Of a DNA stretch of 64,000 bases, positions 7,265 to 59,205 are shown one piece after another; within the stretch, counting starts at the first letter, position 1, and each line of letters opens with the position of its first letter. The notes beneath the pieces were generated by a model. It was not told the origin of the DNA and did no database searches. It was given only the letters and a program-made list of their open reading frames with translations. Source of the stretch: an uncultured Thermoleophilia bacterium (GTDB lineage: Bacteria > Actinomycetota > Thermoleophilia > RBG-16-64-13). The stretch lies in the NCBI GenBank assembly GCA_963749535.1, contig CAVVNF010000014.1:112878-176877 (forward strand), in the 5' to 3' direction. The translations under genes were made by a program, and so were the position numbers.

Positions 7265-7978
7265 ATGGGCAGCATGGCGGCAGAGCGCGTAACCGAGCAT
7301 GTTTACAGGGTCAACGTGGGACCGGGGCAGGTGTTTCTCATCCTGCAGCCGGAGAAGCTCATCCTGATCGACGCCGGGGTCCCGGGCAGCGCCGCCGTGA
7401 TCTCCGAGGCGGTCCGCGGACTCGGGCGTCGTCCCGAGGAGATCTCCGACATCGTTGTCACGCATCCGCACCCCGACCACGCAGGTGGTCTCGCGGAGCT
7501 GAAGGAGCTGACGGGCGCGCGCGTCTGGATGCACGCGGAAGACGCTGCGCTGGTTCGGGCCGGTCGCGCGTTCCGTCCGTGGAAAGTGGCACCGGGCATT
7601 CGGAACCGCGTATTCGCGCGCTTCGTCATCCGCCGTTCGCCCACATCTTTCGAACCGGCGATGGTGGACAGCGAGGTCACGCCCGGACAAGAGTTGCCTT
7701 TCGCCGAGGGGCTTATCGCCCTGCACACTCCCGGCCACACCGCGGGTCACCTGGCTCTGCTCTGGCGCGGCGACGGGGGAGTGCTTTTCGCCGGCGACGC
7801 AGGCAATTACCGTCGCGGCCGCCTGGTGCCCAGCACGGTCAACGAGGACCTTGAGGTGGCTATGGAGAGCCTCCGGCTGCTGGCTCAGGAAGACTTCGAG
7901 ACGGTCTGCTTCGCACACGCGCTACCCATCGTCGGTGGCGCCTCGGCCCTGCTCCGGGAACAGTCGAAGCGTCTTTAG
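7265..7978 (+). CDS. MBL-fold metallo-hydrolase
   Basis: HxHxDH motif THPHPDHAGG, later HTPGHTAGH and a conserved D (FAGDAG). Intact. The ATG at 7265 was chosen within ORF 7166-7978. Confidence 0.8.
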   Translation: MGSMAAERVTEHVYRVNVGPGQVFLILQPEKLILIDAGVPGSAAVISEAVRGLGRRPEEISDIVVTHPHPDHAGGLAELKELTGARVWMHAEDAALVRAGRAFRPWKVAPGIRNRVFARFVIRRSPTSFEPAMVDSEVTPGQELPFAEGLIALHTPGHTAGHLALLWRGDGGVLFAGDAGNYRRGRLVPSTVNEDLEVAMESLRLLAQEDFETVCFAHALPIVGGASALLREQSKRL

Positions 7979-8030
7979 GGACTCTGGCCCCGGCGCTGTT
8001 CAGGTCTCGGCGCGGCCTTGCTTCGGCTTC

Positions 8031-8048
8031 GCCCCGCTCTTGCGGGGC
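8031..8048. terminator. GC hairpin between convergent MBL and iclR genes
   Basis: GCCCCGC-tctt-GCGGGGC followed by TT, in the 158-nt gap between two convergent stops. Confidence 0.35.
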
Positions 8049-8136
8049 TTGCGGCGGTGCGTCGGGAGGCAGACTCGCTTGGGCTTCGCGCCGAGACCCG
8101 TTCGCGTCTAGAGCCTCAGTGCCTAGGCCCGCCCCT

Positions 8137-9075
8137 TCACCTGGCGCCAGGCGCCGTCTTGGGGGGTGAGTAGCCCAGAAATCCGGAGAGGGACGCCGCG
8201 GCCGCCTTTACGGCCTCAGCGCAGTGGCGCCGCTCTTCGGGGCCAAAGCGACCGGTAGGGGCAACAACCGAGAGCGTGGCGATCACGGTGCCAAGTTGAT
8301 CGCGCACCGGCGCCGCCACGGCGCAGGTGCCGATGTTCCGCTCCTCGAGATCGAATCCGATGCCCTCTTGCTCCACTCGCTCCAGCTCGCGGCGAAGCGC
8401 AGCCGGGTCGGTGATCGTGCTGGGAGTCAACTGGGGAAGGGGCTGAGCGATGATGCTTTCCCGGTCCGCGGGCGCCTTGAAGGCCGCGAATACCTTTCCA
8501 TTGGCATTGGCCGTGTATCCGATGATCTGGCCCACGGCTATCTCTCGGCGGAACGGGCGCGAGGTGTCCACCATGTCGACGCTCACTGCCATTCCATCCA
8601 CCTCGACAGCCAGCGTGACCGACTCTCCCGTCGTCTTAGCCAGGGATTCCAGGTAGGGCCGCGCCGTCCTTTCCAGCTCGGAGTAGCCCTCGGAGAGATA
8701 CATCGCGGCCAGCAGAGCGGGGCCGAGGTGGTACCGATTGGTCACGACATCGCGTACCACATACGCCGCACTCTCCATCGTCCGGAGCATGCGGTACGCG
8801 GTCATCCGGGGCAGCCCGGTCTGCTCCGCGATCTGCTCCAGCGTCCATTCGCGGTGCTCCCCGTCGAAAAGACTGAGCACGAGGAGCCCTTTCGATAAAG
8901 CCCGTACCACGAATGCATCGTCCGCACGCTTCGGCGAGGTCTCGCGTAGTCCCGCTGCGCGCTGAGGTCTATCTGGTGTCGCCACGGTTCCCCTCCCAAC
9001 GGACGACCGACTATCCCGGCACAAGACATCATGATTCTTCGTGGATTCTAGCATCACGCGTGATCCCGGCGGCAA
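8137..9075 (-). CDS. IclR family transcriptional regulator (paralog 1)
   Basis: N-terminal wHTH (LSKGLLVLSLFDGEHREWTLEQIAEQTGLPRMTAYRMLRTM) plus an IclR effector domain (GESVTLAVEVDG.., GIGFDLEERNIGTCAVAAPV). The start is uncertain; an internal ATG at 9054 is possible. Confidence 0.85.
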   Translation of the reverse strand: MPPGSRVMLESTKNHDVLCRDSRSSVGRGTVATPDRPQRAAGLRETSPKRADDAFVVRALSKGLLVLSLFDGEHREWTLEQIAEQTGLPRMTAYRMLRTMESAAYVVRDVVTNRYHLGPALLAAMYLSEGYSELERTARPYLESLAKTTGESVTLAVEVDGMAVSVDMVDTSRPFRREIAVGQIIGYTANANGKVFAAFKAPADRESIIAQPLPQLTPSTITDPAALRRELERVEQEGIGFDLEERNIGTCAVAAPVRDQLGTVIATLSVVAPTGRFGPEERRHCAEAVKAAAASLSGFLGYSPPKTAPGAR

Positions 9076-9195: not shown

Positions 9196-9353
9196 CTGTA
9201 GCTGCGTGTCGAAAGCGCCCTTGGCGCGTGCTTTTTTCGACGCGCCCCGGCCGTTCTTCATTTCACGGCCGGAAAGTGTGACACTGATGAAAGGGCCGCA
9301 TAAGCAGCTTACCGGCCGCATTGCCGAGTACAAATCGACTGCGAGGGACTCCA

Positions 9354-10323
9354 GTGAAGCTCGACGACATCAAGAAAGTCGCCATAATCGGCGCAGGGAC
9401 CATGGGCCCGGGTCTGGCTCAGGTGTTCGCCACCGCAGGCTACGACGTTTCGCTCTACTCGAGGAAAGCGGAGACTCTGGAAAAGGCGTTGTCCGTGGTG
9501 CGCGCGAACCTCGGGACATTTGTGGAACACGGCATGGTGCCGGCAGGGGACGTCGAAGGCATAATCGCCGGCATCAAACCCACCCAGTCGGTGGAGGAAG
9601 CGGGCACAGGCGCGGATCTCATCATCGAGAGCATCGCCGAGAAGGTGGACGCGAAGCGCGCGTGTTCGAGGAACTCGACAAGATGTGTCCCGAAGGCGCC
9701 ATCTTCACCAGCAACACCTCGTACCTCAACATCTACGAGCTCGTGCCGGAGAGGCGGCTTCCCGACACGATCATCGCCCACTGGTTCGCGCCGCCGCACA
9801 TCATCCCCCTGGTCGAGGTGGTCAAGGGCCCCGAGACCAGCCAGGAGACCGTCGACGTTCGTGGTGGAGCTCCTCAAGAAGGTCGACCGCGTGCCGACCG
9901 TGATGGAGAAGTTCGTGCCGGGCTTCTGCATCAACCGCTTCCTGCGCATCATCGGCCGCGAGGTCTTCTTCCTGCTGGACAACGGCTACATGACCGCCGA
10001 CCAGCTCGACCTCGCCGTGAAGGCGAGCATCATCCCCCGCGCCATGGTGCTCGGATTCGTGCAGCGCTACGACTTCACCGGCCTCGATCTCAGCTACGGC
10101 AACCTGCAGAACACGGCCTTCATCGAGGCTCCCATCGACAACGAGCCGCGCAGCCTGCTCGAGCGGGTCGAGACGCGGCGAGCTGGGCGTCAAGAGCGGC
10201 AAGGGCTTCTTCGACTACAGCGACCGCGACCTTGGAGGAAGTCCTCAAGAAGCGGGATGCCGCTCTCTCGAGGTCTTCAACGACGTCAAGAGATTCCGTG
10301 ATCTGAACGCCAGCCGCATCTAG
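9354..10323 (+). CDS. 3-hydroxyacyl-CoA dehydrogenase family protein (NAD-binding); about 5 apparent frameshifts
   Basis: GTG 9354 follows GAGGGA. Rossmann motif [29 protein letters not shown], and a C-terminal domain with [14 protein letters not shown]. The signal hops frames 0-2-0-1-2-1 near 9660, 9858, 10175, 10232 and 10268. Stop is TAG 10321-10323. Confidence 0.75.
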
Positions 10324-10340: not shown

Positions 10341-11193
10341 ATGAAACTTCCCGCAGGCAAAGTCATCATCACGGCCGCTCTCAACGGCGCGTTGGTCAAC
10401 AAAGAGATGAACCCGAACGTGCCGGAGCAGCCGGACGAGATCGCACAGGCTGCCCTCGACTGCTACAACGCAGGCGCGGCCATCGTCCACATCCACGCGC
10501 GTGACGAGGAGGGCAAGCCCATGCGGCACCAAGGAGAAGTTCGAGGAGATCCAGGCGGCAGTGCGCGGCAAGTGCCGAGAGATCATCATCCAGTTCTCCA
10601 CCGGCGGCGGCACCAACCTCACCATCGAGGAGCGAGTCTCGCTGCCTCGACGCCAATCCGGAGATGGCGTCGCTCAACATGGGCACCCTGATGCGCCAGA
10701 CCGGCGCCAATCGCCGGGCACGCCGTTCTCGAACATGACCAAAGACATCGAGGCGTGGGCGGCCAAGATGAAGGACCTCGAAGATCAAGCCTGAGATGGA
10801 GTGCTACTCCCAGAGCATGTACCGGGACGTGAACAACCTCATCAAGAAGGAGCTGATCAAGCCGCCGTACTACGTGAACTTCGTGCTCGGCATGCAGTAC
10901 CAGGGCGCCATCGAGGCCACGCCGGAGACGCTCGTGTCGATGTACCAGTTCCTGCCGGAGAACTGCCTCTTCAACACCACCGCCACGTGCGCCGCCCAAC
11001 TGCCGGTCACGACCATGGGGATGATCATGGGCGGCTGCGTGCGTGTCGGCCTGGAAGACAACATCTACTACTCCAGGGGCGTTCTCGCGCAGAGCAACGC
11101 TCAACTGGTCGAGCGGTCGGCGACGGATCGCCAGGGAGCTCAACCTGGAGCCGGCCACTCCGGACGAGGCCAGGCAGATCCTGGGCGTGGTGA
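10341..11193 (+). CDS. beta-keto acid cleavage enzyme (BKACE, DUF849); 5-6 apparent frameshifts
   Basis: SD GGAGGGGAG precedes the start. Motifs: [73 protein letters not shown]. The end is inferred at TGA 11191-11193, because the SDR has its own SD and ATG at 11226. Confidence 0.75.
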
Positions 11194-11225
11194 AGACGAT
11201 AGTCGACGACGAAGGAGGCCGGATC

Positions 11226-12000
11226 ATGGATGATCTGTTTTCACTCAAGGGCAAGAACGCCGTCGTCGTGGGCGGGGCCGGGGGCATTGGCCACGGGCTG
11301 GCCGAAGGGCTCGCCCGCTACGGCGCGCAGGTAGCCATCGCCGACGTGAATCCGGCCAGCCTCGAGCAGGTCTCCGCCGAGCTCGGTAAGGCTACCGGCG
11401 CGACGGTCAAGACCTACATCGTCGACTGCACGCAGGAGGCCAGCGTCCAGGAATTGGTCGCCAAGACCGTCTCCGACATGGGCCGGGTCGACATCCTCGT
11501 CAACGCCCTGGGCTACAACGCCAAGGCTCCGGCGACCGAGTTCCCCATGGACGAATGGGACAAGCTCTTCGCCGTCAACATCCGTGGCGTCATGATGAGC
11601 TGCAAGCACTACGCGGCGCACATGGCCGAGCGGGGCGGCGGCAAGATCATCAACCTCTCGTCGATCCGCGGGGCCAGAGGCGCCACCGGCGGCAACCTCG
11701 CGTACTGTGCGAGCAAGGGCGCGGTCAACATGCTTACGAAGCAGTTGGCTTGCGAGCTGGCCCCGAAGAACGTGCTGGTCAACGCCATCGCGCCGATCAT
11801 CACCATCACTCCGATGACCGCTGAGCGGATCAAGAATGAAGCGTCGCGCTACGAGCGCATGTTGCTCAACGTCCCCATGGGCCGGATGGGAACAGTGGCG
11901 GATCTCGATAGGGCCGGCCGTCTTTCTCGCCTCGCCGGCTTCTGATTTCGTCACCGGGACGATCTTGTATCCCGATGGCGGGATGTCGTCGTTCGTCTAG
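11226..12000 (+). CDS. SDR family oxidoreductase; one apparent frameshift near 11905
   Basis: SD GAAGGAGG precedes the start. Motifs: NAVVVGGAGGIGHG, catalytic YCASK, and a C-terminus FLASPASDFVTGTILYPDGG that is recovered in the +1 frame. Confidence 0.8.
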
Positions 12001-12073: not shown

Positions 12074-13268
<1,195 letters not shown>

Positions 13269-13793: not shown

Positions 13794-14571
13794 ATGGCGA
13801 GATGGGGAATGGTAATCAACCTTGCGAAGTGCACCCGGTGCCACGCATGTGTCGCCGCCTGCAGGATCGAGCACTTCTTACCGTTGCGGGTCACCTGGCC
13901 GCGACTGATCGCCCTTGAGGTGGACGACGGCATCCGGGTGGACGTCTCGACGTACCCGGTCCGCTGCAATCAATGCAAAGACGCCCCGTGCGTCAAAGCC
14001 TGTCCCACGGAGGCCTCACACCAGCGCGAGGACGGCATCGTGGTCATCGATTCCGACAAGTGCTTCGGGTGCCGTTATTGCGTGATCGCCTGTCCCTATC
14101 AGAACCGCACGTTCTTGTCGAAAGACAAGAACCCCGACGTATTTTCCCGATCATGCCGAGACTTCCTTTGAGAAGAAGGGCAAGAAGCTCTACCCACACC
14201 AGGTGGGGACCACCGAGAAATGCAACTTCTGCGTGGAGCGGATAGACGCGGGGATGGCGAAAGGCCTGAAGCCCGGTGTCGATCGTGACGCCACGCCCGC
14301 CTGCGTCAACACCTGCCAGGCGCGAGCGCTCACCTTCGGCGATCTGGACGACCCGGAGAGCGAGGTGGCCAAACTGATCCGCGCCCGCGAGGGATTCCAG
14401 TTGCACGCGGAGTACGGCACCGACCCGTCGGTCTACTACGTCGACTACAAGCTGGGAGGCGCCCCGTCCAACAAGGCCCCCGTGCGTGACCGGACGGGCA
14501 GCCACATCCAGCATCTGAGCACAGTGTATGAGCCGGTCAAGGAGAAGCTGGCCAAAAAGAACTTCAAGTAG
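13794..14571 (+). CDS. 4Fe-4S dicluster subunit of a molybdopterin oxidoreductase (PsrB/DmsB-like); one apparent frameshift near 14138
   Basis: Motifs: CTRCHACVAAC, CNQCKDAPCVKACP, CFGCRYCVIACP, CNFCVERI..CVNTCQ. No signal peptide. ORF 13794-14171 joins ORF 14203-14571. Confidence 0.8.
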
Positions 14572-14586: not shown

Positions 14587-15556
14587 ATGAACGCTAGAAC
14601 GGCCCGTCAATGGATGGTCACGCACGAGTGGATGGTCAAGCCCATGGCCCAGACCGAATGGATCCAGGGTCGAGGGCTCATGGTCTGGCTGGCTGAAGTG
14701 TTCTCGGCCCTCGGCGTCGGGGCTCTTCTTGGTCTCGCTCTTCCTCGCATAGCCTGGTGGGGAGCGCTGTTCGGATGGCTCTTGATCCTGCTGTTCAAGT
14801 TCCCCTTGCACCTGTTCTACCTCGGAAAGCCCGCGCGTTTCTGGAGGGCCTTCCCGCCTTTCAGCAAGGCCTGGAGGACGTCGTGGTTCGCGCGCGGTGT
14901 GGTCTTCACTGCATTGTTCGTCGGCTTCGGGGCGGTCCAATTGGTGACGAGGTACCTCTTGCACTACGACGTGATCTCCGGCTCTGCCGCGTCCACGATC
15001 AACGTCGTCAACTGGGTCATGATGATCCTGGCCGGCATTTTCATCGTCCTTACCGGGGTCTACGCCGGCTTCGCCATGAGCTACTGCAAGAGCGTCCCCT
15101 TCTGGAACACCGGCCTGTCTGCCCATCGTGTTCCTGATCATGGGCGTGGCGGACGGCCTCGCCCTTGTGATCGGGGTGGGGCTGGTGACCGGCGGGACAA
15201 CGCCGCGTCGGCTGGAGTCCGCCACCCGTATCGTCCTTATCGTCAACGCGCTGCTCATCCTCACGTACCTGATCAACGCCAGGTACCAGTCGGCCACGGC
15301 CGAGTTGTCGGTGAAAGAGCTGATCAGTCGGCCGTCTGGCCTGGTCTTCTGGGTGGGGATCGTGGTCCTGGGCATCACCGTGCCATTCGTGATCAGCATC
15401 GTCAGCCTGTTCGCCGGAGAAGCCTCACTGCCCATACTGGTCGTTGCCATCATCTGCCACACCATCGGCGCCTTCTCGCTCAAGTACTGCGTGCTCAAGG
15501 TCGGCATCTATCGGTCCGCTGCTTCCGAAAGCTTCTGCCTTCTAGGCAGTGCGTAG
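14587..15556 (+). CDS. NrfD/PsrC/DmsC-type polytopic membrane subunit; one apparent frameshift near 15115
   Basis: About 8 hydrophobic helices. It aligns along its length with the intact paralog at 41972-42889. ORF 14587.. joins ORF 15128-15556. Confidence 0.7.
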
Positions 15557-41951: not shown

Positions 41952-41971
41952 CGGCAGCCGAAGGAGTCGCG

Positions 41972-47391: not shown

Positions 47392-47398
47392 GGGCGCC

Positions 47399-47641: not shown

Positions 47642-47658
47642 GATAGAAGGAGCTGAAC

Positions 47659-49359: not shown

Positions 49360-49388
49360 GACCGGGCAAGCGGAGATCAGGAGGCGCC

Positions 49389-51345: not shown

Positions 51346-51975
51346 ATGGACGAACATGCAAGTAATGTAGGGGCAAGAAAGAATCCCCCGCGGCTGAAAA
51401 AGTCGGAGAGGCGGACTCAGATCATCGACGCCACCTTGCGTCTTGTGGCTGCGCACGGCGTCCAAGGCACCACCACCGCGCGCATTGCCGCCGCCGTTGG
51501 TCTGAGTGAGCCGGCGCTCTACCGGCATTTTGCCAACAGGAAAGAGATGCTGTTGGCCGCGCTCGAGGTGGTTTTCGACCGGGTGCTCGGGGCGGTCACC
51601 GTATCCCAAGAAGGCAACGCCCTGGAGCGCCTGCGGCGGATCGGGCAACACCACACGGAGACGCTTTCCTCGGACGAGCCCTGGTTCGTGAGTCCGCTTT
51701 TCGACTTTGTCGTTGCCCCCGAACAAGAGGGGCTGCGTGAGCGTGTGAGGACCCTTTCACTGAGGACTGCCGGTGCCGTCGCCTCCATCATCGAGGATGG
51801 GAAAGTCGAGGGCAGCGTGCGTCCCAACGTCGATGCGCAACGCATGGCGCTGCGCGTAATGGCCTTCTTCTGGTCGGAGGACGTCGCCTACCTGATGGGC
51901 ATCCCCGAGTTCGTCACCACCGGGCTCTCCACGGAGACACTCGAAGGGGTCCTTGCCGAGATAGCGTCCGCGTAG
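51346..51975 (+). CDS. TetR/AcrR family regulator (paralog 3)
   Basis: HTH GVQGTTTARIAAAVGLSEPALYRHF. The ATG at 51346 was chosen inside ORF 51292-51975. Confidence 0.85.
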   Translation: MDEHASNVGARKNPPRLKKSERRTQIIDATLRLVAAHGVQGTTTARIAAAVGLSEPALYRHFANRKEMLLAALEVVFDRVLGAVTVSQEGNALERLRRIGQHHTETLSSDEPWFVSPLFDFVVAPEQEGLRERVRTLSLRTAGAVASIIEDGKVEGSVRPNVDAQRMALRVMAFFWSEDVAYLMGIPEFVTTGLSTETLEGVLAEIASA

Positions 51976-52099
51976 CTGCGTGGAGCCGGACAGGCTCTGC
52001 CTCTTTCGCCTCAGTCCGCGTGCCCGGCAGGCTGCCTTCCCTGCCAGTCAGACCGGACGCCCTGGTCTGGGCACGAAGCTCCGCATCGGTGAACAAAAC

Positions 52100-52144
52100 T
52101 TGACGCGGGCGCATTATGCGCTAAACTTGTTAGTACCCGCTAAC
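52100..52144 (+). promoter_or_regulatory. Promoter-like TTGACG-16-TAAACT with palindrome GCGCATTATGCGC in the spacer and TTAG-N6-CTAA just downstream
   Basis: TTGACG at 52100-52105, GCGCATTATGCGC at 52109-52121, TAAACT at 52122-52127, GTTAGTACCCGCTAAC at 52129-52144. Lies between tetR3 and the catabolic operon. Confidence 0.4.
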
Positions 52145-52289
52145 ATGATTTCTGCTTTCCACGATCTGAGAACGCTACAGACTGGATGCAAAAGAGACTG
52201 AGGCCCGCGAGAGGCGATCGGGCCGAGTCGTTCTTCACAAGTTTGGGCGGGATGACAGATGCGGAATCCAACCTCTGAGAGGAGTTGAC

Positions 52290-53183
52290 GTGGGTAAAGT
52301 CGGTTTCCTGGGCATGGGAGTCATGGGGTCAAGAATGGCCACCCGGCTTGTTGCCGCGGGCCACGAGGTGACGGTCTGGAACCGTACACCGGCGAAGTGC
52401 GACGCCCTGGTCGCGAAGGGCGCCCGCGTGGCGAACACTCCGGCGGAGGCCGCGGCGGGCAAGGATATCGTTCTGACGAACCTGACGGACGGACCGGCGC
52501 TCAAGAGTGTGGTCATGGGCAAGGACGGGGTCCTCGAGGCCGATCCTCTGCCCACGTTGCTCGTGGACATGGCCACCGTGGCGCCGGCTGAGTCGGCAGA
52601 GATCGCGGCAGCCGTCGAGCCTCGGGGCATCGGTTTCTTGCGTGCGCCAGTGAGCGGCACCATCATGGTGGCCGAGGCGGGGAAGCTGACCGTCCTTGCC
52701 TCCGGCGAGAGGGACGTCTTCGACGCGGCCGAACCCTACCTGGCTGTGCTCGGTGAGACCCGTTACTACGTGGGTCTGGGCGAGAGCTCGCGGTATCTCA
52801 AGCTGATCCATCAGATGATGATCGGCGCGAACATGCAGGTGTGGGCCGAAGGACTCGTGATGGGTGAAAAGGCCGGACTGGACTGGCAGATCATGCTTGA
52901 CGTGCTCGCGAACAGCGCAGTCGGTTCGGGCGTGGTGAAAGGCAAGATCCCGTCGCTTTCCGCACGCATCTACGACAACCCGGCCATGAGCCTGCACAAC
53001 ATCGTGAAAGACCTGGACCTCGCGCTCACCGCGGCGGATGGCGTAGGGGTCGAGTTGCCCGCCACCAAGCGGGTGCGGGAGCTTTACGAGTGGGCCATGG
53101 ATGATGGGTACGAATGGAAGGATTACTCGGCGCTCGTCCTCGAGTTGGAAAAGCGCGCCGGGTTGGAGCCAAAAGAGGGTTGA
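52290..53183 (+). CDS. NAD(P)-dependent beta-hydroxyacid dehydrogenase (3-hydroxyisobutyrate dehydrogenase family)
   Basis: GTG start. Motifs: VGFLGMGVMGSRMATRL, RAPVSGT, catalytic-region LKLIHQMM. Intact 297 aa. Confidence 0.85.
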   Translation: MGKVGFLGMGVMGSRMATRLVAAGHEVTVWNRTPAKCDALVAKGARVANTPAEAAAGKDIVLTNLTDGPALKSVVMGKDGVLEADPLPTLLVDMATVAPAESAEIAAAVEPRGIGFLRAPVSGTIMVAEAGKLTVLASGERDVFDAAEPYLAVLGETRYYVGLGESSRYLKLIHQMMIGANMQVWAEGLVMGEKAGLDWQIMLDVLANSAVGSGVVKGKIPSLSARIYDNPAMSLHNIVKDLDLALTAADGVGVELPATKRVRELYEWAMDDGYEWKDYSALVLELEKRAGLEPKEG

Positions 53184-53247
53184 TGGATCGTTATTACGCG
53201 CTGCAGGCGCCAAGTCTGCCCGCCTTGTGTGAGAGCGGCGGCTACTA

Positions 53248-54501
53248 ATGGCAAAACTCTTAGAGCATCAAGGTAAAGGCTGGCTTCGCGCGGCGGGTTT
53301 GCCGGTCCCGCGGGGCCGGGTGGCCTCCACTCCGGAGGAGGCCGCGGCTATCGCCGAAGAGCTCGGGTGCCCGGTGGTGGTGAAAGCTCAGGTCCATGCC
53401 GGCGGGCGAGGTAAGTCCGGCGGTCTGGCCATGGCCGACACTCCCGAGCAAGCGGCGCTTGCGGCCTCTTCGCTTCTGGGCCGCGAGTTCAAAGGCGCTG
53501 TCCTGCGCGAGGTTCTCGTGGAGGAGAAGCTCGACATCGCGAGCGAGTTCTACGCAAGCTACACGGTAAACTCGAGCCGGGACGCGCGCTGTCCCATGCT
53601 CATGTTCAGCTCCGAGGGCGGCGTTGACATCGAGAGCGTTCCCGAAGAGAAGCTGTTCCGGCTGCTCGTCTCGCCTACGAAAGGGCCGGATGTGTCGGCT
53701 CTCCTCGATGCTCTTCGCCAGGCCGGGATACGTGGCGTTCAGCAGAATGTGCTGGCGGGTTTTCTGGTCGATCTCTTCGAGGCTTATCACGCCTACGACT
53801 GCTTCACTCTCGAGATCAACCCGATCGTGGCGACCCCACTGGGCGATATTTACGCCGCCGATTGCAAGATGGAGATCGACAACAGCTCCGTCTTCAGGCA
53901 CCCGGAGATGGGTATCGAGGTAGCCCGCGATTTCGGTCACGAGCCGACGGAGCTAGACCTCATCGGCTGGGGCATCGAGGAGTTCGACCAACGTGGTTCG
54001 GGTTTCCTCATGAGCATGGGCTTCGACGAGAAGAGCCCGGGCTACATCGGCTACCACCCCATCGGGGGCGGCTCGGCGATGGTCGGCATGGACGCGCTGC
54101 GCAAAGTAGGGCTCAAGGTGGCCAATTATGCCGATACCAGCGGCAATCCGGTGGCCTCCAAGATATACCGGGTGGCTAAAGTGGTCCTTTCCCAGCCCGG
54201 CATAGAGGGCTACCTCCTCGCGGGCTTCATGATGGCCAACCAGGAGCAGTGGCACCACGCCCATGCCATCGTGAAAGCCTTGCGCGAGGTCTTGCCCTAC
54301 CGGCCCGGCCTGCCTTGCTTGCTCCTGCTGTGCGGCAACAAAGAGGAGGAGTCGCTCGCCATCCTGCGTGAAGGTCTCGCGGACGTGCCCGGCGGGGAGC
54401 GCATCGAGATATTCGGCCGGGAATACGTCACCGACACCGGGTTCATCGCCCAGAGGATGCTCGCCATGGTCGAGGACTACCATCGGGCGATGGGCGGGTG
54501 A
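53248..54501 (+). CDS. ATP-grasp acid-CoA ligase beta subunit-like protein (succinyl-CoA synthetase beta / citryl-CoA synthetase-like)
   Basis: Starts MAKLLEHQGKGWL, with VVKAQVHAGGRGKSGG and EINPI. The C-terminal CoA-ligase domain is divergent. Clearly distinct from the canonical sucC at 28824. Confidence 0.75.
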   Translation: MAKLLEHQGKGWLRAAGLPVPRGRVASTPEEAAAIAEELGCPVVVKAQVHAGGRGKSGGLAMADTPEQAALAASSLLGREFKGAVLREVLVEEKLDIASEFYASYTVNSSRDARCPMLMFSSEGGVDIESVPEEKLFRLLVSPTKGPDVSALLDALRQAGIRGVQQNVLAGFLVDLFEAYHAYDCFTLEINPIVATPLGDIYAADCKMEIDNSSVFRHPEMGIEVARDFGHEPTELDLIGWGIEEFDQRGSGFLMSMGFDEKSPGYIGYHPIGGGSAMVGMDALRKVGLKVANYADTSGNPVASKIYRVAKVVLSQPGIEGYLLAGFMMANQEQWHHAHAIVKALREVLPYRPGLPCLLLLCGNKEEESLAILREGLADVPGGERIEIFGREYVTDTGFIAQRMLAMVEDYHRAMGG

Positions 54502-54511
54502 GGAGATAAGC

Positions 54512-55789
54512 ATGCTCTCATTCTCAGAAAGAACAGTGACCGTCTCCATCGACACGGGCAGATGCCCCGAGTGCGTGAGCAAGGCCTGCGTGGCCGCCTG
54601 TCACAAGTATGCCCGCGGCATCCTCGAACTGAAGGACGGCATCCCATCCGTGGCCCATCTGGACGCCGAAGGAGTGAAGCGCGGCGGCACCGAGTGTCTG
54701 GCGTGCGAATACGAGTGCTGGTTTCGCGGCCGCCAGGCGATTTCAATCGACGTGCCTATCAAAGGCCTGCCGGAGTATCTGGCCAAGCGCGGGCTCCCGC
54801 AGACCGGCGCGCCCTCCGTTCGGGGACGAGTCCGGCCCGCCCAGCGAATCCCGCGGAACAGACGAGTGCCGCGGCGCGGCCGAAGGACGGTCGTAGCCAT
54901 GGGCATACTCATCGACAGAAACGTGAAGGTGATGGTGCAGGGGATCACCGGCCGCGAAGGCTCCCTGCGCGCTCAGTTCATGAAGGACTACGGCACTCGC
55001 GTCGTCGCGGGCACCAGCCCCGGCAAGAGCGGCGACCAGGTGTGCGGCATCCCGGTTTACGACACCGTAGAAGAGGCGATCGCCGCCCAGGGCCAGGTGG
55101 ATTTCAGCGTGATCTTCGTGCCGGGGCGCACCCTTCTGCCCGCCGTGAAAGAGGCGGCGGACGCCGGGGTCCCAAACCTCGTAGCCTGCGTGGAATCGGT
55201 GCCTATCCAGGACATCATGGTGATGGTCGAGTACTGCAGGGAGCGGGGCACTCGCCTGCTCGGCCCGGGGACCATCGGGATGATCACGCCCGGCGAGGCG
55301 GTCGTGGGTTGGCTCGGTGGCAGCGTGGAATGGGCGAACACGTTCTTCGCCCCCGGTCCCATCGGAGTCTTCTCGAGGAGCGGCGGCCAGTCCGGCACCA
55401 TACCCTGGGTGTTGAGCCGCGCCGGCTTCGGCGTCTCCACGGTGGTCCACACCGGCACGGAACCGGTGATCGGCACGTCCATGGCCGACCTGCTGCCGCT
55501 CTTTGAAGCCGATCCCAAGACCAAAGCGGTCGCCGTCTTTTCGGAGATCGGCGGCTCTCAGGAAGAGGAATGTGCGGAAGTCATCGCCTCGGGCGGCTTC
55601 ACAAAGCCATTCGTCATTTTCGTAGCCGGCTCCTGGGCACCGGAGGGCCAGCGCTTCTCGCACGCCTCCAGCATCGTGGAGAGAGGCCGTGGCTCGGCCA
55701 AGAGCAAGATGGAGGCCATCGAAAAAGCCGGCGGCTACGTGGCCGAGAGTCCCAACGACATCCCCCGCATCCTAACGGAGCTCTTATAG
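54512..55789 (+). CDS. Cys-rich ferredoxin-like N-terminal domain fused (as assembled) to a succinyl-CoA synthetase alpha-like CoA-binding subunit
   Basis: N-terminus: [21 protein letters not shown] (7 Cys). An Arg/Pro-rich linker covers 54790-54898. The alpha-like part starts at [21 protein letters not shown] (ATG 54899, preceded by GAAGGA), with SRSGGQSG and a conserved His in FSHASSIV. This could be two genes if an indel hides a stop. Confidence 0.65.
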
Positions 55790-55930
55790 GGAGTCGCAGA
55801 GAGCAGCGCCGGGAAACAGACCGTATGCGACACCGCCGGATATCGGCGTTCGCGCAAGAGCTATCCGAGTCGCGACAAACCCGAATAACGACCAACCAGA
55901 ATAACGATCAAAGGAGTCACCTTGGCTGTC

Positions 55931-56813
55931 ATGCGTTCCGTTCTATATGTCCCCGGTAACAACGAGAAGATGATCGGCAAGGCTTACGGCCTCTCTGCCG
56001 ACATCGTCACTCTCGATCTAGAGGATTCGGTCCCGCCTGCCGAGAAGGCCCGCGCCCGCGAGATCTCGGCGGCCGCTCTTCTCGAAGTGGGCAAAGCCGG
56101 TTCCGAGGTGTACGTGCGCCTTAACAACTGGGAGACCCTCATGACCGACGACGATCTACGAGGCGGTCGTCCACAAGGGTCTGGCCGGGGTCACTTTGGC
56201 CAAATGCGGGCATCCCGACGACGTGAAACGGCTCGACTGGAAGCTGGATGAGTTGGAGCGTCGCCGCGGCCTCGAACGGGGGAGTATCAAGATCTCGCTC
56301 CTCCTTGAGACCGCCAAAGGGGTCATCCATGCATATCCGTCGTGCGGAGCCAGCCCGCGGGTCGTGAGCGCCATCTTCGGCGCCGTCGATTATACGAAAG
56401 ACATGCGGGTGAAGCTGACCTCCGAGGGTGAGGAGCAGAGGTACGCCCGCCGGCACATCGCCGTGGCAGCACGCGCCGCCGGCGTCGTGGCTATCGACGC
56501 TCCCTTCGTCGCCTACCAGGACATGGAAGCCTTCGAAGCCAACCTCCGCGACGGGCGCCAGATGGGCTACGAGGGCCGGATGATCATCCACCCGAGCCAG
56601 ATCGAAGTGTGCAACCGGCTTTACGCGCCCGATCCCGACGACGTGATCTGGGCCCAAGGGGTCGTGAAAGCGTTCGAAGAAGAAGCCATCGCCAAGGGCT
56701 CGGCGTCCATCTCATACAACGGTAAGATGGTCGACACTCCTGTCTACCTCAATGCGAAGGACATCCTGAGCGCTCATGAGGAGATCGAAGCCAAGAACGC
56801 GGGCAAGAACTAA
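55931..56813 (+). CDS. CitE/HpcH-family acyl-CoA lyase (citrate lyase beta / malyl- or citramalyl-CoA lyase-like); one apparent frameshift near 56155
   Basis: Motifs: RSVLYVPGNNEKM, DIVTLDLEDSV, LLETAKGV, FGAVDY, GRMIIHPSQI. ORF 55922-56251 joins ORF 56196-56813. Confidence 0.8.
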
Positions 56814-56857
56814 CCGAGAGTTAAGCGAGAGCAGATCCGAAAGATCGGGAGAAGAAC

Positions 56858-58066
56858 ATGGCTGATCCAGTTCCAGTAGCCGCGGTCGAGAGACTCGTCC
56901 AGAGCATCTCCACGGCCGAACTCGAGCGCCGGTGGGCAGCGACGCGGGAGATGATGAAGGAACACGGGCTCGACTACCTCGTGATGCAGAACAACGAGGA
57001 GTACCTCGGAGGGACGCCTCGTTGGTTCACCGACTTCGCCGCTCGTCACCAGTACCCCATGACCGTCATCTTCCCGGTGGATGGCGAGATGACCGTCATC
57101 AACTGCGGCATGGAGCCGCCCGCCGCGACGCCATTCCCGCCGATGTCGGCCGCCCGCGGCATCGGGAAGTCCCTGGGTGCGGTCTACTTCCCCACCACCC
57201 ACTACTCGAGTACGATCGAGGCCAAGCTGGCAGTGGACGTCCTCAAGGAGAAGAGGAACCCGACCATCGGCTGGGTGGACAGGACGTTCATCCCGGTGAC
57301 CTTCCATGAGTACGTGGTGGACAATCTGCCCGGGGCCGTCTTCGTGGACGCCACCGACTGGGTGGACCGGCTGAAAGTGGTGAAGAGCGCCGAGGAGATA
57401 GAGCTGATCCGAGCCTGTGCGCGCATCCAGGACGGGTGTGTGGAACACCTGACCCAGACCATCGTGCCAGGCATGCACGATTACGACGTCTACGCCGAGG
57501 CTCACTATTACTGCTCAAAGCACGGCAGTTCACGGGGCATCGTGCAGGTGGGTTCCGGGCCGTTGGGGACATGCGTGCCCTTCGATGTCTACCGGATGCA
57601 GAATCGCGTCATCGGCCACGGGGACCAGGTCTCGGTCTTGATCGAGACGAACGGTCCGGCCGGGTACTACTCGGAGCTCGTGAAGATCTTTACCGTGGGG
57701 GCTGAGCCGCCGAAATCGCTGCTGGATGCGTTCGCCACTTCTCTAGAGTGCCAGCACATGATCGCCAAGGCGATGGTTCCCGGTGCCGACCCCGGCGAAC
57801 TGTGGACGATGCACTGTGATTTCCTCACGGAAAGAGGCTACTTCTTACCGGGTCGGTCTTTCTCGCATGGGCAAGGTCTGTCGCTGGTGGAAAGGCCGAA
57901 CATCCGGCCGGAAGAGCCCTGGAAGCTCGAGAAGGGGATGAACATCGCGGTGCATCCGTCGGTCGTGCAGAAGAACGTGTGGGCCACCGTCTGCGACGGC
58001 TATATCGTCGGGGAAAACGGGGCTGAGAGGCTCCACAAGACCCCTCAGACGATCGCCCGGGTGTGA
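56858..58066 (+). CDS. M24 family (creatinase/Xaa-Pro peptidase fold) hydrolase, probably non-peptidase
   Basis: Creatinase_N-like N-terminal half plus a pita-bread C-terminal half (SAEEIELIRACARI, GDQVSVLIETNGPAGYYSE, SHGQGLSLVERP). By-eye alignment suggests several canonical metal ligands are substituted. Intact 402 aa. Confidence 0.75.
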   Translation: MADPVPVAAVERLVQSISTAELERRWAATREMMKEHGLDYLVMQNNEEYLGGTPRWFTDFAARHQYPMTVIFPVDGEMTVINCGMEPPAATPFPPMSAARGIGKSLGAVYFPTTHYSSTIEAKLAVDVLKEKRNPTIGWVDRTFIPVTFHEYVVDNLPGAVFVDATDWVDRLKVVKSAEEIELIRACARIQDGCVEHLTQTIVPGMHDYDVYAEAHYYCSKHGSSRGIVQVGSGPLGTCVPFDVYRMQNRVIGHGDQVSVLIETNGPAGYYSELVKIFTVGAEPPKSLLDAFATSLECQHMIAKAMVPGADPGELWTMHCDFLTERGYFLPGRSFSHGQGLSLVERPNIRPEEPWKLEKGMNIAVHPSVVQKNVWATVCDGYIVGENGAERLHKTPQTIARV

Positions 58067-58137
58067 ATCTCGTCCAACCACGCCGCGATGGCTGCGTTTC
58101 AACGATCCGTCGATAGAGAGCCCAAAAGGAGCGAGGG

Positions 58138-58935
58138 ATGAGTAAGAGGCTAGAAGGAAAGGTGGCCGTCATCACCGGTGGCGGCGGTGTGGGCCAGGCC
58201 ATCGTGGAGAAGTTCGTCCGGGAAGGGGCGACAGTCGCGGTTGTCGATTTCAGCCAGGCCAATATCGACCTGACCCTGAAAGCGATCGAGGCGCTGGGCG
58301 GCACCGGCATGGGTGTGCTCACCGACGTCAGCAACGAGCAGGCCGTCATCGACATGGCCGCTGCGGTGGCAAAGGCCTACGGCAAGATCGATGTCCTTGT
58401 GAACACGGCTGCGGTGCCCGATCCCACGGCCGCCCTGATCGATCTCAAGCTGGAGGATTGGAACAAGATCTTCGCCGTGGATCTCGTCGGTACGATGCTC
58501 TGCTCGAGAGAAGTTGTCAGGTTCATGATCCCTGCGAAGAGCGGGAGCATCATCAACATCGGGGCCGAAGGAGGCCGCGCCGGAGACGGTCGTGGCGGCT
58601 ACCCGATGCGGGCCGGCTACTGCTCCGCCAAAATGGGCGTGATCGGTCTTACCGAGACGCTCTCCCGCGAAGTGGGCAAGGACGGCATCCGCGTGAATTG
58701 CGTGAGTCCCGCCGGCGTCAACGGCGAGCGTTTCCGGACCGTGGTCATCGGGGGCAGGGCGAAGGCCCAAGGTATCTCCTACGAGGCGGCTCTCGCCGAC
58801 GAAGTAAGCAAATACTCGCTTGGCAGGGTGGTGGAGCCCATGGAGATAGCGAATCTCGTCGCCTTCCTGGCCTCCGACGAAGCGAGTGGGATCACCGGCC
58901 AGACTATCCCGGTGAACTGCGGTCTTCACTGGTAG
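58138..58935 (+). CDS. SDR family oxidoreductase
   Basis: Motifs: VAVITGGGGVGQA, NTAAV, catalytic YCSAK, PAGV. Intact 265 aa. Confidence 0.85.
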   Translation: MSKRLEGKVAVITGGGGVGQAIVEKFVREGATVAVVDFSQANIDLTLKAIEALGGTGMGVLTDVSNEQAVIDMAAAVAKAYGKIDVLVNTAAVPDPTAALIDLKLEDWNKIFAVDLVGTMLCSREVVRFMIPAKSGSIINIGAEGGRAGDGRGGYPMRAGYCSAKMGVIGLTETLSREVGKDGIRVNCVSPAGVNGERFRTVVIGGRAKAQGISYEAALADEVSKYSLGRVVEPMEIANLVAFLASDEASGITGQTIPVNCGLHW

Positions 58936-58956
58936 CTTCCTTGGGGGTTTGATCGC

Positions 58957-59205
58957 GTGAATCTCACCCTTGTTGCACATGCCGGTCTGCTCGGTCCGCC
59001 CGCTGAGGCCAAGACCCGGTTCTCCGAGCGCCGCCATCTGGAGTTCGAGTCGACTGAGGTCAGCGTGGCGACGGTTCTCGAGCAGGTCGGTCTGGACCGA
59101 GACGCCGTGGGAGTCATGCTGGTCGAGGGAGAACCCGTGGGCATCGACGATCTGCTGGCCGACGGCGCGCAGTTGGACCTGTACCCATTCTTCGGCGGTG
59201 GATGA
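58957..59205 (+). CDS. small ubiquitin-like (ThiS/MoaD/Mut7-C-type beta-grasp) protein ending in Gly-Gly-Gly
   Basis: 82 aa with GTG start 21 nt after the SDR stop. C-terminal half VATVLEQVGLDRDAVGVMLVEGEPVGIDDLLADGAQLDLYPFFGGG-stop. Confidence 0.45.
   Translation: MNLTLVAHAGLLGPPAEAKTRFSERRHLEFESTEVSVATVLEQVGLDRDAVGVMLVEGEPVGIDDLLADGAQLDLYPFFGGG

Follow-up and report, generated by a model that had tools for sequence, protein, structure and literature searches.

Does a 52-kb region that carries four molybdenum (Mo) enzymes amount to a single pathway, or to several that share a neighbourhood? We address this question for positions 7265–59205 of a 64,000-nucleotide stretch of DNA from an uncultured Thermoleophilia bacterium (GenBank assembly GCA_963749535.1, contig CAVVNF010000014.1), the whole of which we call the window. 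A sequence-only reading had described the region as a tRNA-bounded, anaerobic polyphenol-degradation supercluster built from duplicated modules. We read it instead, with a probability of roughly 0.6, as a mosaic of chromosomal operons, six or more in number and each under its own regulation, in which a left block (7.3–27.8 kb) would form an O2-independent catabolic unit for hydroxybenzenes and a right block (34.8–59.2 kb) holds three TetR-controlled operons whose substrates cannot be named; the paralogues are old, and the many frameshifts are assembly errors. The defensible core of this reading comprises a transhydroxylase (TH) orthologue together with a phloroglucinol-like lower pathway, a conserved five-gene unit of two molybdoenzymes, and a large unnamed family of cytoplasm-facing molybdoenzymes. 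The framing as a duplicated supercluster should be dropped.

Protein families were assigned by Pfam and NCBIfam scans of all plausible open reading frames (ORFs), with the scan for cyclase and integrase families spanning 4.9–59.2 kb. Paralogue identities come from tblastn searches of every product against the window, and tRNAs were located by ARAGORN and Rfam. Broken genes were recognized by a frame-by-frame scan of coding potential and by split Pfam domains, and were then joined by frameshift-tolerant stitching; functional reasoning on these genes treats them as intact. The closest genome match (L005) is a long-read metagenome-assembled genome (MAG) labelled uncultured Thermoleophilia bacterium MFD01299.bin.2.213, and two independent short-read soil contigs (L012 and L013) share 95% nucleotide identity with the window (96–99% at the amino acid level).

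A transhydroxylase orthologue

One of the four Mo enzymes, THL2–THs2, is an orthologue-grade member of the pyrogallol–phloroglucinol transhydroxylase family. Its large subunit (24105–26663, plus strand; Pfam AhtL-like_1st) is intact at 852 amino acids and aligns over residues 6–836 with residues 7–866 of the Pelobacter enzyme (PDB 4v4c_A, E = 2.4e-254), with 49% identity over 829 positions. THL2 retains H144, W147, Y152, D174, the Mo ligand S175, Y404 and Y560, and has lysine at R153. Of these, we take Ser175 to be the Mo ligand and His144, Asp174, Tyr404 and Arg153 to be substrate-binding or catalytic residues, as reported by Messerschmidt et al. 2004. The small subunit, THs2 (26878–27780, plus strand), likewise has the Pelobacter small subunit as its best match (4v4c_B, E = 1.8e-52), and both TH small subunits of the window contain Fer4_11 and CarboxypepD_reg domains, that is, iron–sulfur (FeS) clusters and a C-terminal Ig-like domain. 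When 12 TH-family proteins are aligned, THL2 groups with proteins from a Bacillota MAG (L001, 74% identity), L003 (60%) and L008. A thiolase gene adjoins TH2-type genes in L001 and in an Actinomycetes MAG (L002), the latter also carrying sucCD. Like its Pelobacter counterpart, THL2–THs2 would be expected to catalyse the isomerization of pyrogallol to phloroglucinol, with 1,2,3,5-tetrahydroxybenzene as co-substrate.

A related observation concerns L008, a MAG labelled uncultured Actinomycetota bacterium MFD04716.bin.2.261, which encodes a TH large subunit (L008:10001–12571) that is 82% identical to the Pelobacter acidigallici enzyme and far closer to it than the window copy is. We take this likeness as a sign of inter-phylum transfer of transhydroxylase genes.

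A linked two-molybdoenzyme unit

The second TH-type enzyme stands next to a molybdoenzyme of a different family. On the plus strand lie the genes for PsrB1, a four-cluster FeS subunit without a signal peptide (13794–14571; Pfam Fer4_11; one frameshift error); PsrC1, an NrfD-type membrane subunit that interacts with quinone (14587–15556; Pfam NrfD in two fragments; one frameshift error); PsrA1, a 737-amino-acid catalytic subunit of the bis-molybdopterin guanine dinucleotide (bis-MGD) type that lacks a twin-arginine (Tat) signal (15574–17789; PDB 2e7z; about ten frameshift errors); and a RidA/L-PSP family protein (17832–18227; Pfam Ribonuc_L-PSP, 1.1e-21). Convergent with this series, in the window as in L005, are the minus-strand genes for the small FeS subunit THs1 (18334–19158; Pfam Fer4_11 and CarboxypepD_reg) and the large subunit THL1 (19159–21783; 874 amino acids after stitching across two frameshift errors).

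THL1 (4v4c_A, E = 4.9e-133) is 36% identical to the Pelobacter enzyme and keeps H144, D174 and S175. The other five of the eight pocket residues checked are not kept: W147, Y152 and R153 are replaced by cysteine, threonine and proline (W147C, Y152T, R153P), Y404 is F or R according to the alignment, and a gap stands opposite Y560. This pocket pattern is repeated across the clade of THL1, which clusters at 50–71% identity with proteins from Desulfobacteraceae (L104, MAG GCA_021737545.1), Thermoleophilia relatives (L011), Dehalococcoidia (L006) and Adlercreutzia (L007). Going by sequence, we place THL1 in the TH/RhL family as a member of a separate TH1 clade and not among the pyrogallol transhydroxylases; it probably acts on a different phenolic substrate.

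PsrA1 finds its best structural match, over the whole chain, in acetylene hydratase (AH; 2e7z, E = 1.9e-82), followed by FdhF (2e-50) and polysulfide reductase (Psr; 2.6e-46). The metal-ligand cysteine (in GYVCHSPR) aligns with AH Cys141, and the first FeS cysteine motif (CxxCxxxC, FS0) lies at residues 11–18. The catalytic Asp13 of acetylene hydratase, which adjoins the second FS0 cysteine, is replaced by His, and PsrA1 is therefore not an acetylene hydratase. The catechol dehydroxylases of gut Actinobacteria form the sister group of acetylene hydratase; those of the Eggerthella type have a Tat signal, an FeS subunit and a membrane anchor, and those of the Gordonibacter type are Tat-less and soluble (PMC7028382). 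PsrA1 is a predicted member of this acetylene-hydratase/catechol-dehydroxylase clade. Its homologues are 68–96% identical across MAGs labelled Thermoleophilia, Desulfobacteraceae, Dehalococcoidales and Proteobacteria, and PsrB1 is 64–86% identical to its counterparts in L104, L105 and L019.

The two enzymes keep company well beyond the window. Within 12 kb, L019 (91% identity) carries THL1–THs1, IclR, SDR–BKACE–3HCDH and PsrB–NrfD–PsrA, with the TH and Psr genes divergent, where SDR denotes a short-chain dehydrogenase/reductase, BKACE a beta-keto acid cleavage enzyme and 3HCDH a 3-hydroxyacyl-CoA-dehydrogenase-family enzyme. In L020 and L021 (70%), a TH large/small pair of a third TH type is divergent from PsrB–NrfD–PsrA, and flavoprotein and ferredoxin genes come after the latter. 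The tightest arrangement is found in the Desulfobacteraceae MAG (L104:8228–15763), in which PsrB, NrfD, PsrA, TH-L and TH-S form a same-strand run of five genes with gaps of −1 to 100 nucleotides; the five proteins are 64, 56, 80, 71 and 65% identical to those of the window, respectively, and the TH-L belongs to the TH1 clade. Of five informative contexts, four thus pair PsrA1-type genes with TH genes; a further context, in L105, stops at a contig edge. The co-occurrence of modules on which the sequence-only reading depended is thus borne out for TH1, PsrBCA1 and the SDR/BKACE/3HCDH set, which are found together in relatives. Because the linkage of TH1 with PsrBCA1 recurs across relatives, including L104, we infer one functional unit that has moved between phyla, and the L104 run suggests lateral transfer of the complete two-molybdoenzyme unit. 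As a further observation, L020 encodes a NarJ/TorD-type chaperone (Nitrate_red_del) and a 194-amino-acid protein of no recognized family beside its TH pair (L020:6763–8039); no such chaperone gene is present in the window.

In such a unit, the FeS and NrfD subunits would anchor the AH-clade enzyme to the membrane on its cytoplasmic side, and this enzyme would work together with THL1–THs1. The unit is predicted to hydroxylate and/or reductively dehydroxylate benzenes that bear two, three or four hydroxyl groups, exchanging electrons with menaquinone. Two versions can be envisaged. Resorcinol hydroxylase (RhLS/RehLS) is a Ser-ligated, cytoplasmic Mo enzyme of the TH family that hydroxylates a phenol with water and passes the electrons on (PMC10100899, PMC10084136), and TH1 might do likewise, with menaquinone receiving the electrons by way of the FeS subunits and NrfD. 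Alternatively, hydroxylation by TH1 could be coupled to reductive dehydroxylation by the AH-clade enzyme, which would amount to transhydroxylation without a tetrahydroxybenzene co-substrate. Sequential transhydroxylations that convert hydroxyhydroquinone to phloroglucinol in Pelobacter massiliensis are cited in PMC3971608. In the literature searched, we found no description of a TH1-clade enzyme linked to a Tat-less, NrfD-anchored AH-clade enzyme.

A bolder joint reading would make the unit a single five-subunit machine, in which a TH/resorcinol-hydroxylase-family enzyme, adding a ring hydroxyl taken from water and yielding electrons, and a catechol-dehydroxylase-clade enzyme, using up electrons as it strips off a ring hydroxyl, are joined by FeS chains and an NrfD quinone site to give a quinone-buffered ‘split’ transhydroxylase or hydroxylase for di- to tetra-hydroxybenzenes, laterally spread among Actinomycetota, Desulfobacterota and Chloroflexota; it would also make the β-grasp–PsrA2B2C2 complex described below a new and widespread cytoplasm-facing class with a MoaD-like protein as structural subunit and not as sulfur carrier. 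Taken as a whole, we consider this package unlikely.

A candidate lower pathway

Upstream of the two-molybdoenzyme unit, four plus-strand genes in a row encode enzyme families of phloroglucinol breakdown. They specify a 3HCDH-family enzyme, a candidate 3-hydroxy-acid dehydrogenase (9321–10320; 3HCDH_N and 3HCDH over two frames; at least three frameshift errors); a BKACE (10341–11200; Pfam match in two fragments; several frameshift errors); SDR1, a candidate ring reductase (11187–11945; Pfam adh_short); and a thiolase, acetyl-CoA C-acyltransferase (12074–13268; one frameshift error), which scores 477 bits on NCBIfam TIGR01930 against a cut-off of 240. The 3HCDH-family enzyme and SDR1 are 57% and 65% identical, respectively, to their homologues in the matching SDR–BKACE–3HCDH set of L019. 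The characterized counterpart is the phloroglucinol cluster of Clostridium scatologenes, which encodes PGR (an SDR), DPGC (a ‘cyclase’-family protein), the 3HCDH-like TfD, TAL (a BKACE) and a thiolase (PMC10470551). By analogy, the set in the window probably works like a phloroglucinol lower pathway, although we do not file it as a member. Its families are plain, and its substrates are presumed. The SDR, the 3HCDH-type dehydrogenase, the BKACE and the thiolase would take the reduced, ring-opened product to acetoacetate and acetyl-CoA.

Four further genes belong to this block. An MBL-fold metallohydrolase (7274–7978, plus strand; Pfam Lactamase_B, 2.8e-31) is followed by IclR regulator 1 (8137–8880, minus strand), which is 70% identical to the IclR beside the SDR–BKACE–3HCDH set of L019. 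Between the TH pairs lie an EamA/DMT transporter gene (22083–23039, plus strand) and IclR regulator 2 (23084–23842, minus strand), both assigned by Pfam. The two regulators and the transporter would complete the left block. The left half probably breaks down trihydroxybenzenes of plant origin without oxygen, a function that is supported in part.

Molybdoenzymes without Tat signals

The sequence-only reading held that the four Mo enzymes and their FeS partners lack Tat signals and that all of their chemistry is therefore cytoplasmic. The first claim stands: inspection of the N termini revealed no twin-arginine motif in any Mo or FeS subunit of the window, and none occurs in 119 homologues of the PsrA1 family or in 118 of the PsrA2 family. 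With 0 of 237 homologues carrying the motif, the lack of a Tat signal is a property of the family. In the PsrA1 and PsrA2 families, FS0 starts at median residue 11 or 17. The second claim is right as to the side of the membrane and needs amendment as to the place. Because NrfD subunits imply membrane attachment and quinone coupling, the PsrABC systems would be membrane-attached, and their chemistry is better located on the cytoplasmic face of the membrane. Mo enzymes without a Tat signal have precedents, TH itself being cytoplasmic.

The build of both Psr-like complexes, with an A (bis-MGD), a B (four-cluster FeS) and a C (NrfD) subunit, invites the view that they are conventional respiratory enzymes that reduce polysulfide, thiosulfate, tetrathionate, arsenate or a similar acceptor, and weak matches to the PhsA, ArrA, TtrB and DsrO models point the same way. 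We nevertheless consider this highly improbable and do not file either complex with the respiratory members. No Mo enzyme of the window attains an NCBIfam cut-off set for polysulfide, thiosulfate, tetrathionate or arsenate reductases, and the catalytic subunits fall far short: the N-terminal part of PsrA2 scores 188 against 694 for PhsA, 120 against 1600 for ArrA and 48 against 1750 for TtrA. The A and B subunits of the window are Tat-less, as are all of the homologues just counted; acetylene hydratase is a far nearer relative of PsrA1 than Psr is; and the genes of the complexes lie in linkage with TH genes and with regulators of catabolism.

A molybdoenzyme family with a β-grasp partner

The second Psr-like complex, on the plus strand of the right half, is of another kind. 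The gene for PsrA2, a Tat-less bis-MGD protein of 858 amino acids after repair of a 1-nucleotide insertion error at 40226 (38715–41292), is preceded by that for bg1, a MoaD/ThiS-like β-grasp protein ending in GGG (38331–38630), and followed by those for PsrB2 (FeS) and PsrC2 (NrfD) (41343–42889; Pfam), which score below all NCBIfam cut-offs except for a marginal DsrO score. The best structural match of PsrA2 is Psr (2.9e-39), over only the N-terminal 250 or so residues, and its likeness to ArrA is equally limited. A search at E ≤ 1e-30 gave 2,447 homologues of PsrA2, all of them without a functional name.

The β-grasp protein recurs with the catalytic subunit. A small bg1-like gene lies directly upstream of a PsrA2-type gene in L011, L012, L013 and L014, and twice in L018. 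Four homologues (P0025, P0030, P0047 and P0057), each about 950 amino acids long, carry bg1 as an N-terminal fusion to the Mo subunit: bg1 residues 8–99 align to the first 95 or so residues of the fused members with E values of 4e-8 to 6e-12. In these fusions the Gly-Gly becomes internal, which argues that bg1 is a structural partner and not a thiocarboxylate sulfur carrier. On this comparison bg1 is predicted to be a dedicated partner of PsrA2. Separately, the β-grasp homologue of L014 ends in GGSS and not in GG.

Another configuration was seen at L016:8001–12451, where a PsrA2-type subunit (70% identical, 896 amino acids) overlaps the start of a 587-amino-acid flavoprotein of the FAD1 type, with no PsrB or PsrC and with RidA on the opposite strand; it suggests an alternative, soluble Mo-flavoprotein arrangement of the PsrA2-type subunit. 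The literature searched contains no description of a β-grasp–PsrA2BC family. With more than 2,400 homologues and a dedicated β-grasp partner, these proteins make up a large molybdoenzyme family that has yet to be named.

Operons of the right half

All genes of the right half are on the plus strand. A DUF169 protein and the SdhA/AprA-like flavoprotein FAD1 (587 amino acids; together 34791–37370; Pfam) and TetR regulator 1 (37607–38236; Pfam) precede the β-grasp–PsrA2B2C2 genes. TetR regulator 2 and SBP2, a Tat-lipoprotein substrate-binding protein (SBP) at 44068–45531, follow (together 43221–45531; Pfam), and then CocE/NonD hydrolase 1, an 80-amino-acid 2×[4Fe-4S] ferredoxin (Fdx), FAD2 and CocE/NonD hydrolase 2 with one frameshift error (45667–51148; Pfam and PDB). 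The last series (51346–59205; Pfam, and below the NCBIfam cut-offs) comprises TetR regulator 3, an HIBDH-like dehydrogenase, SucC2 and SucD2, a CitE/HpcH-type lyase with one frameshift, an M24 creatinase/prolidase-like protein, SDR3 and the β-grasp protein bg2. These genes would form operons for DUF169–FAD1 with β-grasp–PsrA2B2C2, for SBP2–CocE–Fdx–FAD2–CocE, and for HIBDH–SucC2D2–CitE–M24–SDR.

We found no aromatic-specific signal in the right half. The CitE-like, HIBDH-like and M24 proteins are all under the curated NCBIfam cut-offs, and SucC2 and SucD2 (53248–55789) fail the equivalog models (215 against 370 and 264 against 336). The nearest structures to FAD2 are the alpha subunit of APS/PAPS reductase and SdhA/FrdA (about 1e-22), and those to CocE1 are cocaine esterase/CocE-NonD proteins (1e-41 to 1e-46), with no evidence that the esterase-like hydrolases are of the tannase type suggested from sequence. 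The Fdx–FAD2–CocE2 triad (window 47399–51148) is kept at 53–69% identity in the distant L103:1–3757; in a closer relative (L102:9727–13009), Fdx–FAD2 is followed by a MOFRL/glycerate-kinase-type gene. SucD2 (54536–55789) is distinguished from the genuine SucD by an N-terminal Cys-rich extension of about 120 amino acids (including CLACEYEC) that resembles a ferredoxin-type domain.

The region holds two binding proteins without their usual partners. SBP1 (30519–32006, plus strand) and SBP2 are both Peripla_BP_6 proteins with a Pfam TAT_signal or twin-arginine start (SRRDFLK/SRREFMK) and an LVAACGG lipobox, as had been claimed, and they are 44% identical; the 64 kb contains no ABC permease or ATPase gene, which leaves both as orphan binding proteins. 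Long Thr/Ser-rich linkers follow the lipobox in each.

In relatives, modules of the right half adjoin isochorismatase, hydantoinase, racemase, RidA or glycerate-kinase genes, and this opens a different account of the locus. On that account the right half, and possibly the RidA-linked Mo enzymes as well, would serve non-aromatic or nitrogen-containing compounds such as amides, esters, cyclic amides and peptide-derived acids: S15/CocE and M24 proteins would hydrolyse them, an Fdx-dependent flavoprotein would oxidize the products, and C3–C6 acids would pass through the HIBDH-like dehydrogenase, the SCS-like (succinyl-CoA-synthetase-like) ligase and the CitE-like lyase. The families themselves fit (Peptidase_S15/PepX_C, M24/Creatinase_N, tartronate-semialdehyde-reductase-like, CitE and SCS-like), RidA stands beside PsrA1 in the window and beside the Mo-flavoprotein pair in L016, genes for isochorismatase, Asp/Glu racemase, nitroreductase and hydantoinase A/B come after PsrA2BC in L011, and the glycerate-kinase-type MOFRL gene follows Fdx–FAD in L102. 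Against it, all scores lie under curated cut-offs, so that no function is assigned; the neighbours vary between genomes; and PsrA2BC also occurs beside TH1-type genes in L011. We rate this account as possible but distinctly doubtful, for the substrates and for the route alike.

Paralogy

How much of the region is really duplicated? The regulators are (IclR1 and IclR2 are 59% identical, and TetR1–3 50–56%), and so are the TH pairs, at 45% for the small subunits and about 37% for the large ones, the flavoproteins (FAD1/FAD2, 55%) and the CocE/NonD hydrolases (30–36%); for all of these, as for the two SBPs, the copy numbers given from sequence agree with ours. Other pairs are less alike or differ in kind. 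Both PsrABC-like enzymes do have NrfD subunits (PsrB1/PsrB2, 43–46%; PsrC1/PsrC2, 28%), but their A subunits, one AH-like with 737 amino acids and the other with 858, are not close paralogues. Two SCS-type pairs are present (SucD/SucD2, 43%; SucC/SucC2, 33%), but one of them is the housekeeping sucCD. The two β-grasp proteins both end in GGG, yet bg1 and bg2 find no mutual match and show no detectable similarity by tblastn. The count of three SDRs does not hold, as only two adh_short SDRs exist (11187–11945 and 58138–58935; SDR1/SDR3, 28–30% identical), the other dehydrogenases being of 3HCDH and NAD_binding_2 types.

To say that nearly every gene family appears at least twice is also an overstatement, since about 13 families are single-copy: MBL, 3HCDH, BKACE, thiolase, RidA, EamA, PMT_2, SHOCT, DUF169, the 80-amino-acid ferredoxin, HIBDH-like, CitE-like and M24. 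Nor is the region built from duplicated modules. The longest DNA-level repeat in the window is 174 nucleotides at 71–74% identity, over the TetR helix-turn-helix region, and the paralogues are 28–59% identical; the pairs are therefore old family members and not recent in-place duplicates. Recent duplication was rejected as their origin on the same measure (repeats of at most 174 nucleotides at about 72% identity).

Borders and mosaic arrangement

The limits of the region agree with its gene content: the MBL gene begins at 7274, close to 7265, and the final β-grasp gene terminates at 59205. On the left, tRNA-Thr(CGT) (4499–4573, plus strand; ARAGORN, Rfam) lies 2.7 kb outside this limit, with a methyltransferase and unannotated ORFs in between, and the flank beyond encodes thymidylate kinase (tmk), a DNA polymerase III delta'-like protein (holB) and a PSP1 protein. 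On the right, tRNA-Tyr, Thr(GGT), Met and Trp (59373–59959, plus strand) are followed by core genes for SecE, NusG, L11, L1, L10 and the start of RpoB (secE–nusG–rplKAJL–rpoB). With tmk–holB–PSP1–tRNA on one side and tRNAs–secE–nusG–rpl–rpoB on the other, the region sits between two core-genome loci. The Pfam and NCBIfam scans yielded no integrase-family match, and no flanking or att-like repeat and no compositional break were found, so the term ‘tRNA-bounded’ has no mechanistic meaning here. The Rfam scan of the window returned tRNAs only, with no Moco riboswitch or other RNA element.

A tRNA genomic island acquired horizontally was considered and rejected: integrase and att-like repeats are lacking, GC content is flat and synteny with L005 is kept. 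That the GC content matches the core genome and excludes a recent import was correctly seen from sequence; GC stays between 0.61 and 0.66 throughout the window.

The mosaic character shows in both content and order. Five regulator genes, two IclR and three TetR, are distributed over the region. At 27958–29990 on the minus strand lie sucD and sucC, an ADP-forming succinyl-CoA synthetase that exceeds the NCBIfam equivalog cut-offs (SucC 491 against 370 bits, SucD 427 against 336); having passed curated models, sucCD belongs to ordinary central metabolism. A PMT_2/YkcB-type glycosyltransferase and a SHOCT protein (32241–34660, plus strand; Pfam; 1-nucleotide insertion error at 33186) are not related to catabolism. 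Gene order is kept in L005 over window positions 14261–36988 at 84–90% nucleotide identity, and the modules are arranged differently in L011, L012 and L019. In L011, two TH1-type genes are followed by MFS, TetR, SBP, bg, PsrA2BC, isochorismatase, an HIBDH-like gene, racemase, nitroreductase and hydantoinase genes, and the order in L019 is TH1, IclR, SDR–BKACE–3HCDH, PsrBCA1, MFS, POR and ACS. With L005 syntenic and these others reshuffled, the arrangement is stable at short and modular at longer evolutionary range.

Two differences of detail were recorded along the way. L012 carries an extra gene for a 495-amino-acid binding protein between FAD1 and TetR1 (L012:5295–6782) that is missing at window 37370–37607, a gene-content polymorphism. 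Within the glycosyltransferase, a Gly/Pro-rich low-complexity stretch (window 33770–34150) has length indels (insertions or deletions) of 3–9 nucleotides relative to L005.

Frameshifts as assembly errors

Eleven genes switch reading frame, broken by roughly 20–30 single-base indels; stitching placed about 31 such shifts, 22 of them within 9.3–17.8 kb. Indel density is about 2.6 per kb there against about 0.2 per kb elsewhere; further indels occur at 2770–4243, 33186, 40226, about 50776 and about 56153, and they are not limited to homopolymers. The PSP1 gene of the left flank appears to be split as well. Such a concentration could mean that the frameshifts are real and that the left block at 9.3–21.8 kb is a decaying, non-functional relic, the more so because the sites that can be compared with short-read contigs lie outside the dense stretch. 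Those sites, however, tell against decay. L012 and L013 are intact where the window has 1-nucleotide insertions at 33186 (glycosyltransferase) and 40226 (PsrA2), and across the 10.4 kb compared with these contigs every single-base difference is an extra base in the window. L005 is also broken by indels, at sites other than those of the window. Between stitched PsrA1 and an intact 735-amino-acid homologue (P0121), 33 of the 737 columns differ, roughly half at shift sites, which corresponds to 96% identity overall and about 97.5% away from the shifts; after repair, PsrA2 shares 98% identity with a database protein of exactly equal length (P0001).

As the short-read contigs are intact, L005 is broken elsewhere and the repaired PsrA1 and PsrA2 match intact proteins, we regard the frameshifts as sequencing or assembly errors. 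The damage consists of indels only, and protein identity to L005 (86–93%) is not below nucleotide identity (86%), both of which speak further against a relic, a reading to which we give almost no credence. The pattern looks like a local low-quality consensus of a long-read assembly.

One pathway or several

One competitor to a mosaic is the original proposal that all 52 kb form one duplicated anaerobic supercluster for polyphenols (gallate, pyrogallol, phloroglucinol and tannin), with tannase-like CocE/NonD hydrolases and all four Mo enzymes acting on aromatic rings. Part of it survives, because the region does carry TH-family genes, AH-clade genes and a phloroglucinol-like lower-pathway set, and it gains from the PsrA2BC module that adjoins two TH1-type genes in L011 and from paralogues that are mutual best matches within the window. 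The whole does not cohere. Paralogue identities of 28–59% without DNA repeats, the housekeeping sucCD, the glycosyltransferase and the SHOCT protein inside the region, and modules that assort independently in relatives all count against it; CocE, FAD, SucC2D2, CitE and M24 have no tie to aromatics, and their neighbours in relatives are non-aromatic; and gallate decarboxylase, tannase and DPGC were not found in the window. We judge the proposal improbable. A polyphenol-degrading region is therefore retained for the left part, with its TH orthologue, second TH enzyme, AH-clade enzyme and lower-pathway set, and given up for a single coherent 52-kb supercluster, against which sucCD, the glycosyltransferase, the five regulators and the reshuffling speak. 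As for the label ‘anaerobic’, the chemistry is O2-independent, and the lifestyle of an anaerobe is an assumption.

Several points weigh against our own reading. On the TAL-type model NF053538 (3,5-dioxohexanoate:acetyl-CoA acetone transferase), the stitched BKACE reaches 210 bits where 430 are required, and on Kce 289 where 382 are; it passes neither and scores higher on the lysine-pathway Kce than on TAL, on which the BKACE of L019 scores 177. SDR1 matches only generic enzymes (gluconate 5-dehydrogenase, glucose 1-dehydrogenase and similar) among the 60 PDB matches listed and in NCBIfam. No ‘cyclase’-family DPGC (Mn-dependent dihydrophloroglucinol cyclohydrolase) occurs in the ORFs scanned across 4.9–59.2 kb, and it is also missing beside the homologous gene set in L019. 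The MBL hydrolase is a possible ring hydrolase and a weak candidate: it is lineage-restricted, a metagenome scan having returned one close relative (L022, 72%), again beside an IclR1-like gene, with the rest at most 39% identical, and the literature searched holds no description of an MBL-type dihydrophloroglucinol hydrolase. Gallate decarboxylase, tannase and flavonoid genes are not in the window. For some modules, nitrogen-containing substrates are hinted at by the RidA gene next to PsrA1 and by the isochorismatase, hydantoinase and racemase genes close to relatives of the PsrA2 module. Several proteins were studied as computationally stitched sequences, which are approximate within a few residues of each shift; the taxon labels of relatives are the names on related MAG records, with no marker-gene phylogeny behind them; and the dehydroxylases Dadh, Cldh and Dodh were set beside PsrA1 by description only.

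Significance

The hydroxylated benzenes of tannins, flavonoids and lignin are a large pool of soil carbon, and O2-independent routes for them are, to our knowledge, known from few cultured anaerobes only. The unit of TH1 and PsrBCA1 bears on the identity of the natural electron partner of TH/resorcinol-hydroxylase-type enzymes, and on why a redox-neutral transhydroxylase has FeS clusters at all. Multiple TH operons per genome, together with acetylene-hydratase-like genes, were reported from uncultured Chloroflexi in 2013 and 2016 and read as use of pyrogallol or plant polymers (PMC3971608, PMC4959651); a transhydroxylase in soil Thermoleophilia is, in view of these reports, an incremental addition.

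Comparison with known systems

The lower-pathway genes resemble the C. scatologenes cluster in that four of its five families (SDR, 3HCDH-like, BKACE and thiolase) stand in a row at 9.3–13.3 kb, near the putatively phloroglucinol-forming TH2 enzyme. They differ from it in that the window lacks DPGC and a CoA-transferase, the BKACE is below the TAL cut-off and SDR1 is not demonstrably a PGR.

THL2–THs2 shares with the P. acidigallici enzyme a full-length match at 49% identity, the Mo ligand and pocket residues, the lack of a Tat signal and a small subunit with FeS and Ig-like domains. It departs from that enzyme in having Lys for Arg153 and in its host, an actinobacterium and not a fermenting deltaproteobacterium. 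For a TH1 enzyme wired to PsrB and PsrC, the resorcinol hydroxylase of Aromatoleum/Azoarcus anaerobium may be a plausible model, by description only; unlike the A. anaerobium pathway, the window showed no homologues of hydroxyhydroquinone dehydrogenase (BtdLS) or HBQ dehydrogenase.

SoeABC complexes face the cytoplasm. Belonging to the bSreA/SoeA lineage, they are molybdoenzymes of the A + B + NrfD type (PMC10100899). Their three subunits, with Tat-less A and B, offer a precedent for a Tat-less PsrABC complex, by description only. PsrA2 homologues have in addition a MoaD-like β-grasp partner, fused to the catalytic subunit in some, and we know of no description of such a partner for SoeABC.

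PsrA1 is like acetylene hydratase in its length (737 against 727 amino acids), its FS0 motif and its Cys ligand. It is like the Gordonibacter enzymes Dodh and Cldh in lacking a Tat signal, and like the Eggerthella enzymes Dadh, Cadh and Hcdh in that an FeS subunit and a membrane anchor are encoded alongside. What sets it apart from both dehydroxylase types is that a Tat-less catalytic subunit is paired with an NrfD subunit, in the gene order B–C–A and linked to an enzyme of the TH family.

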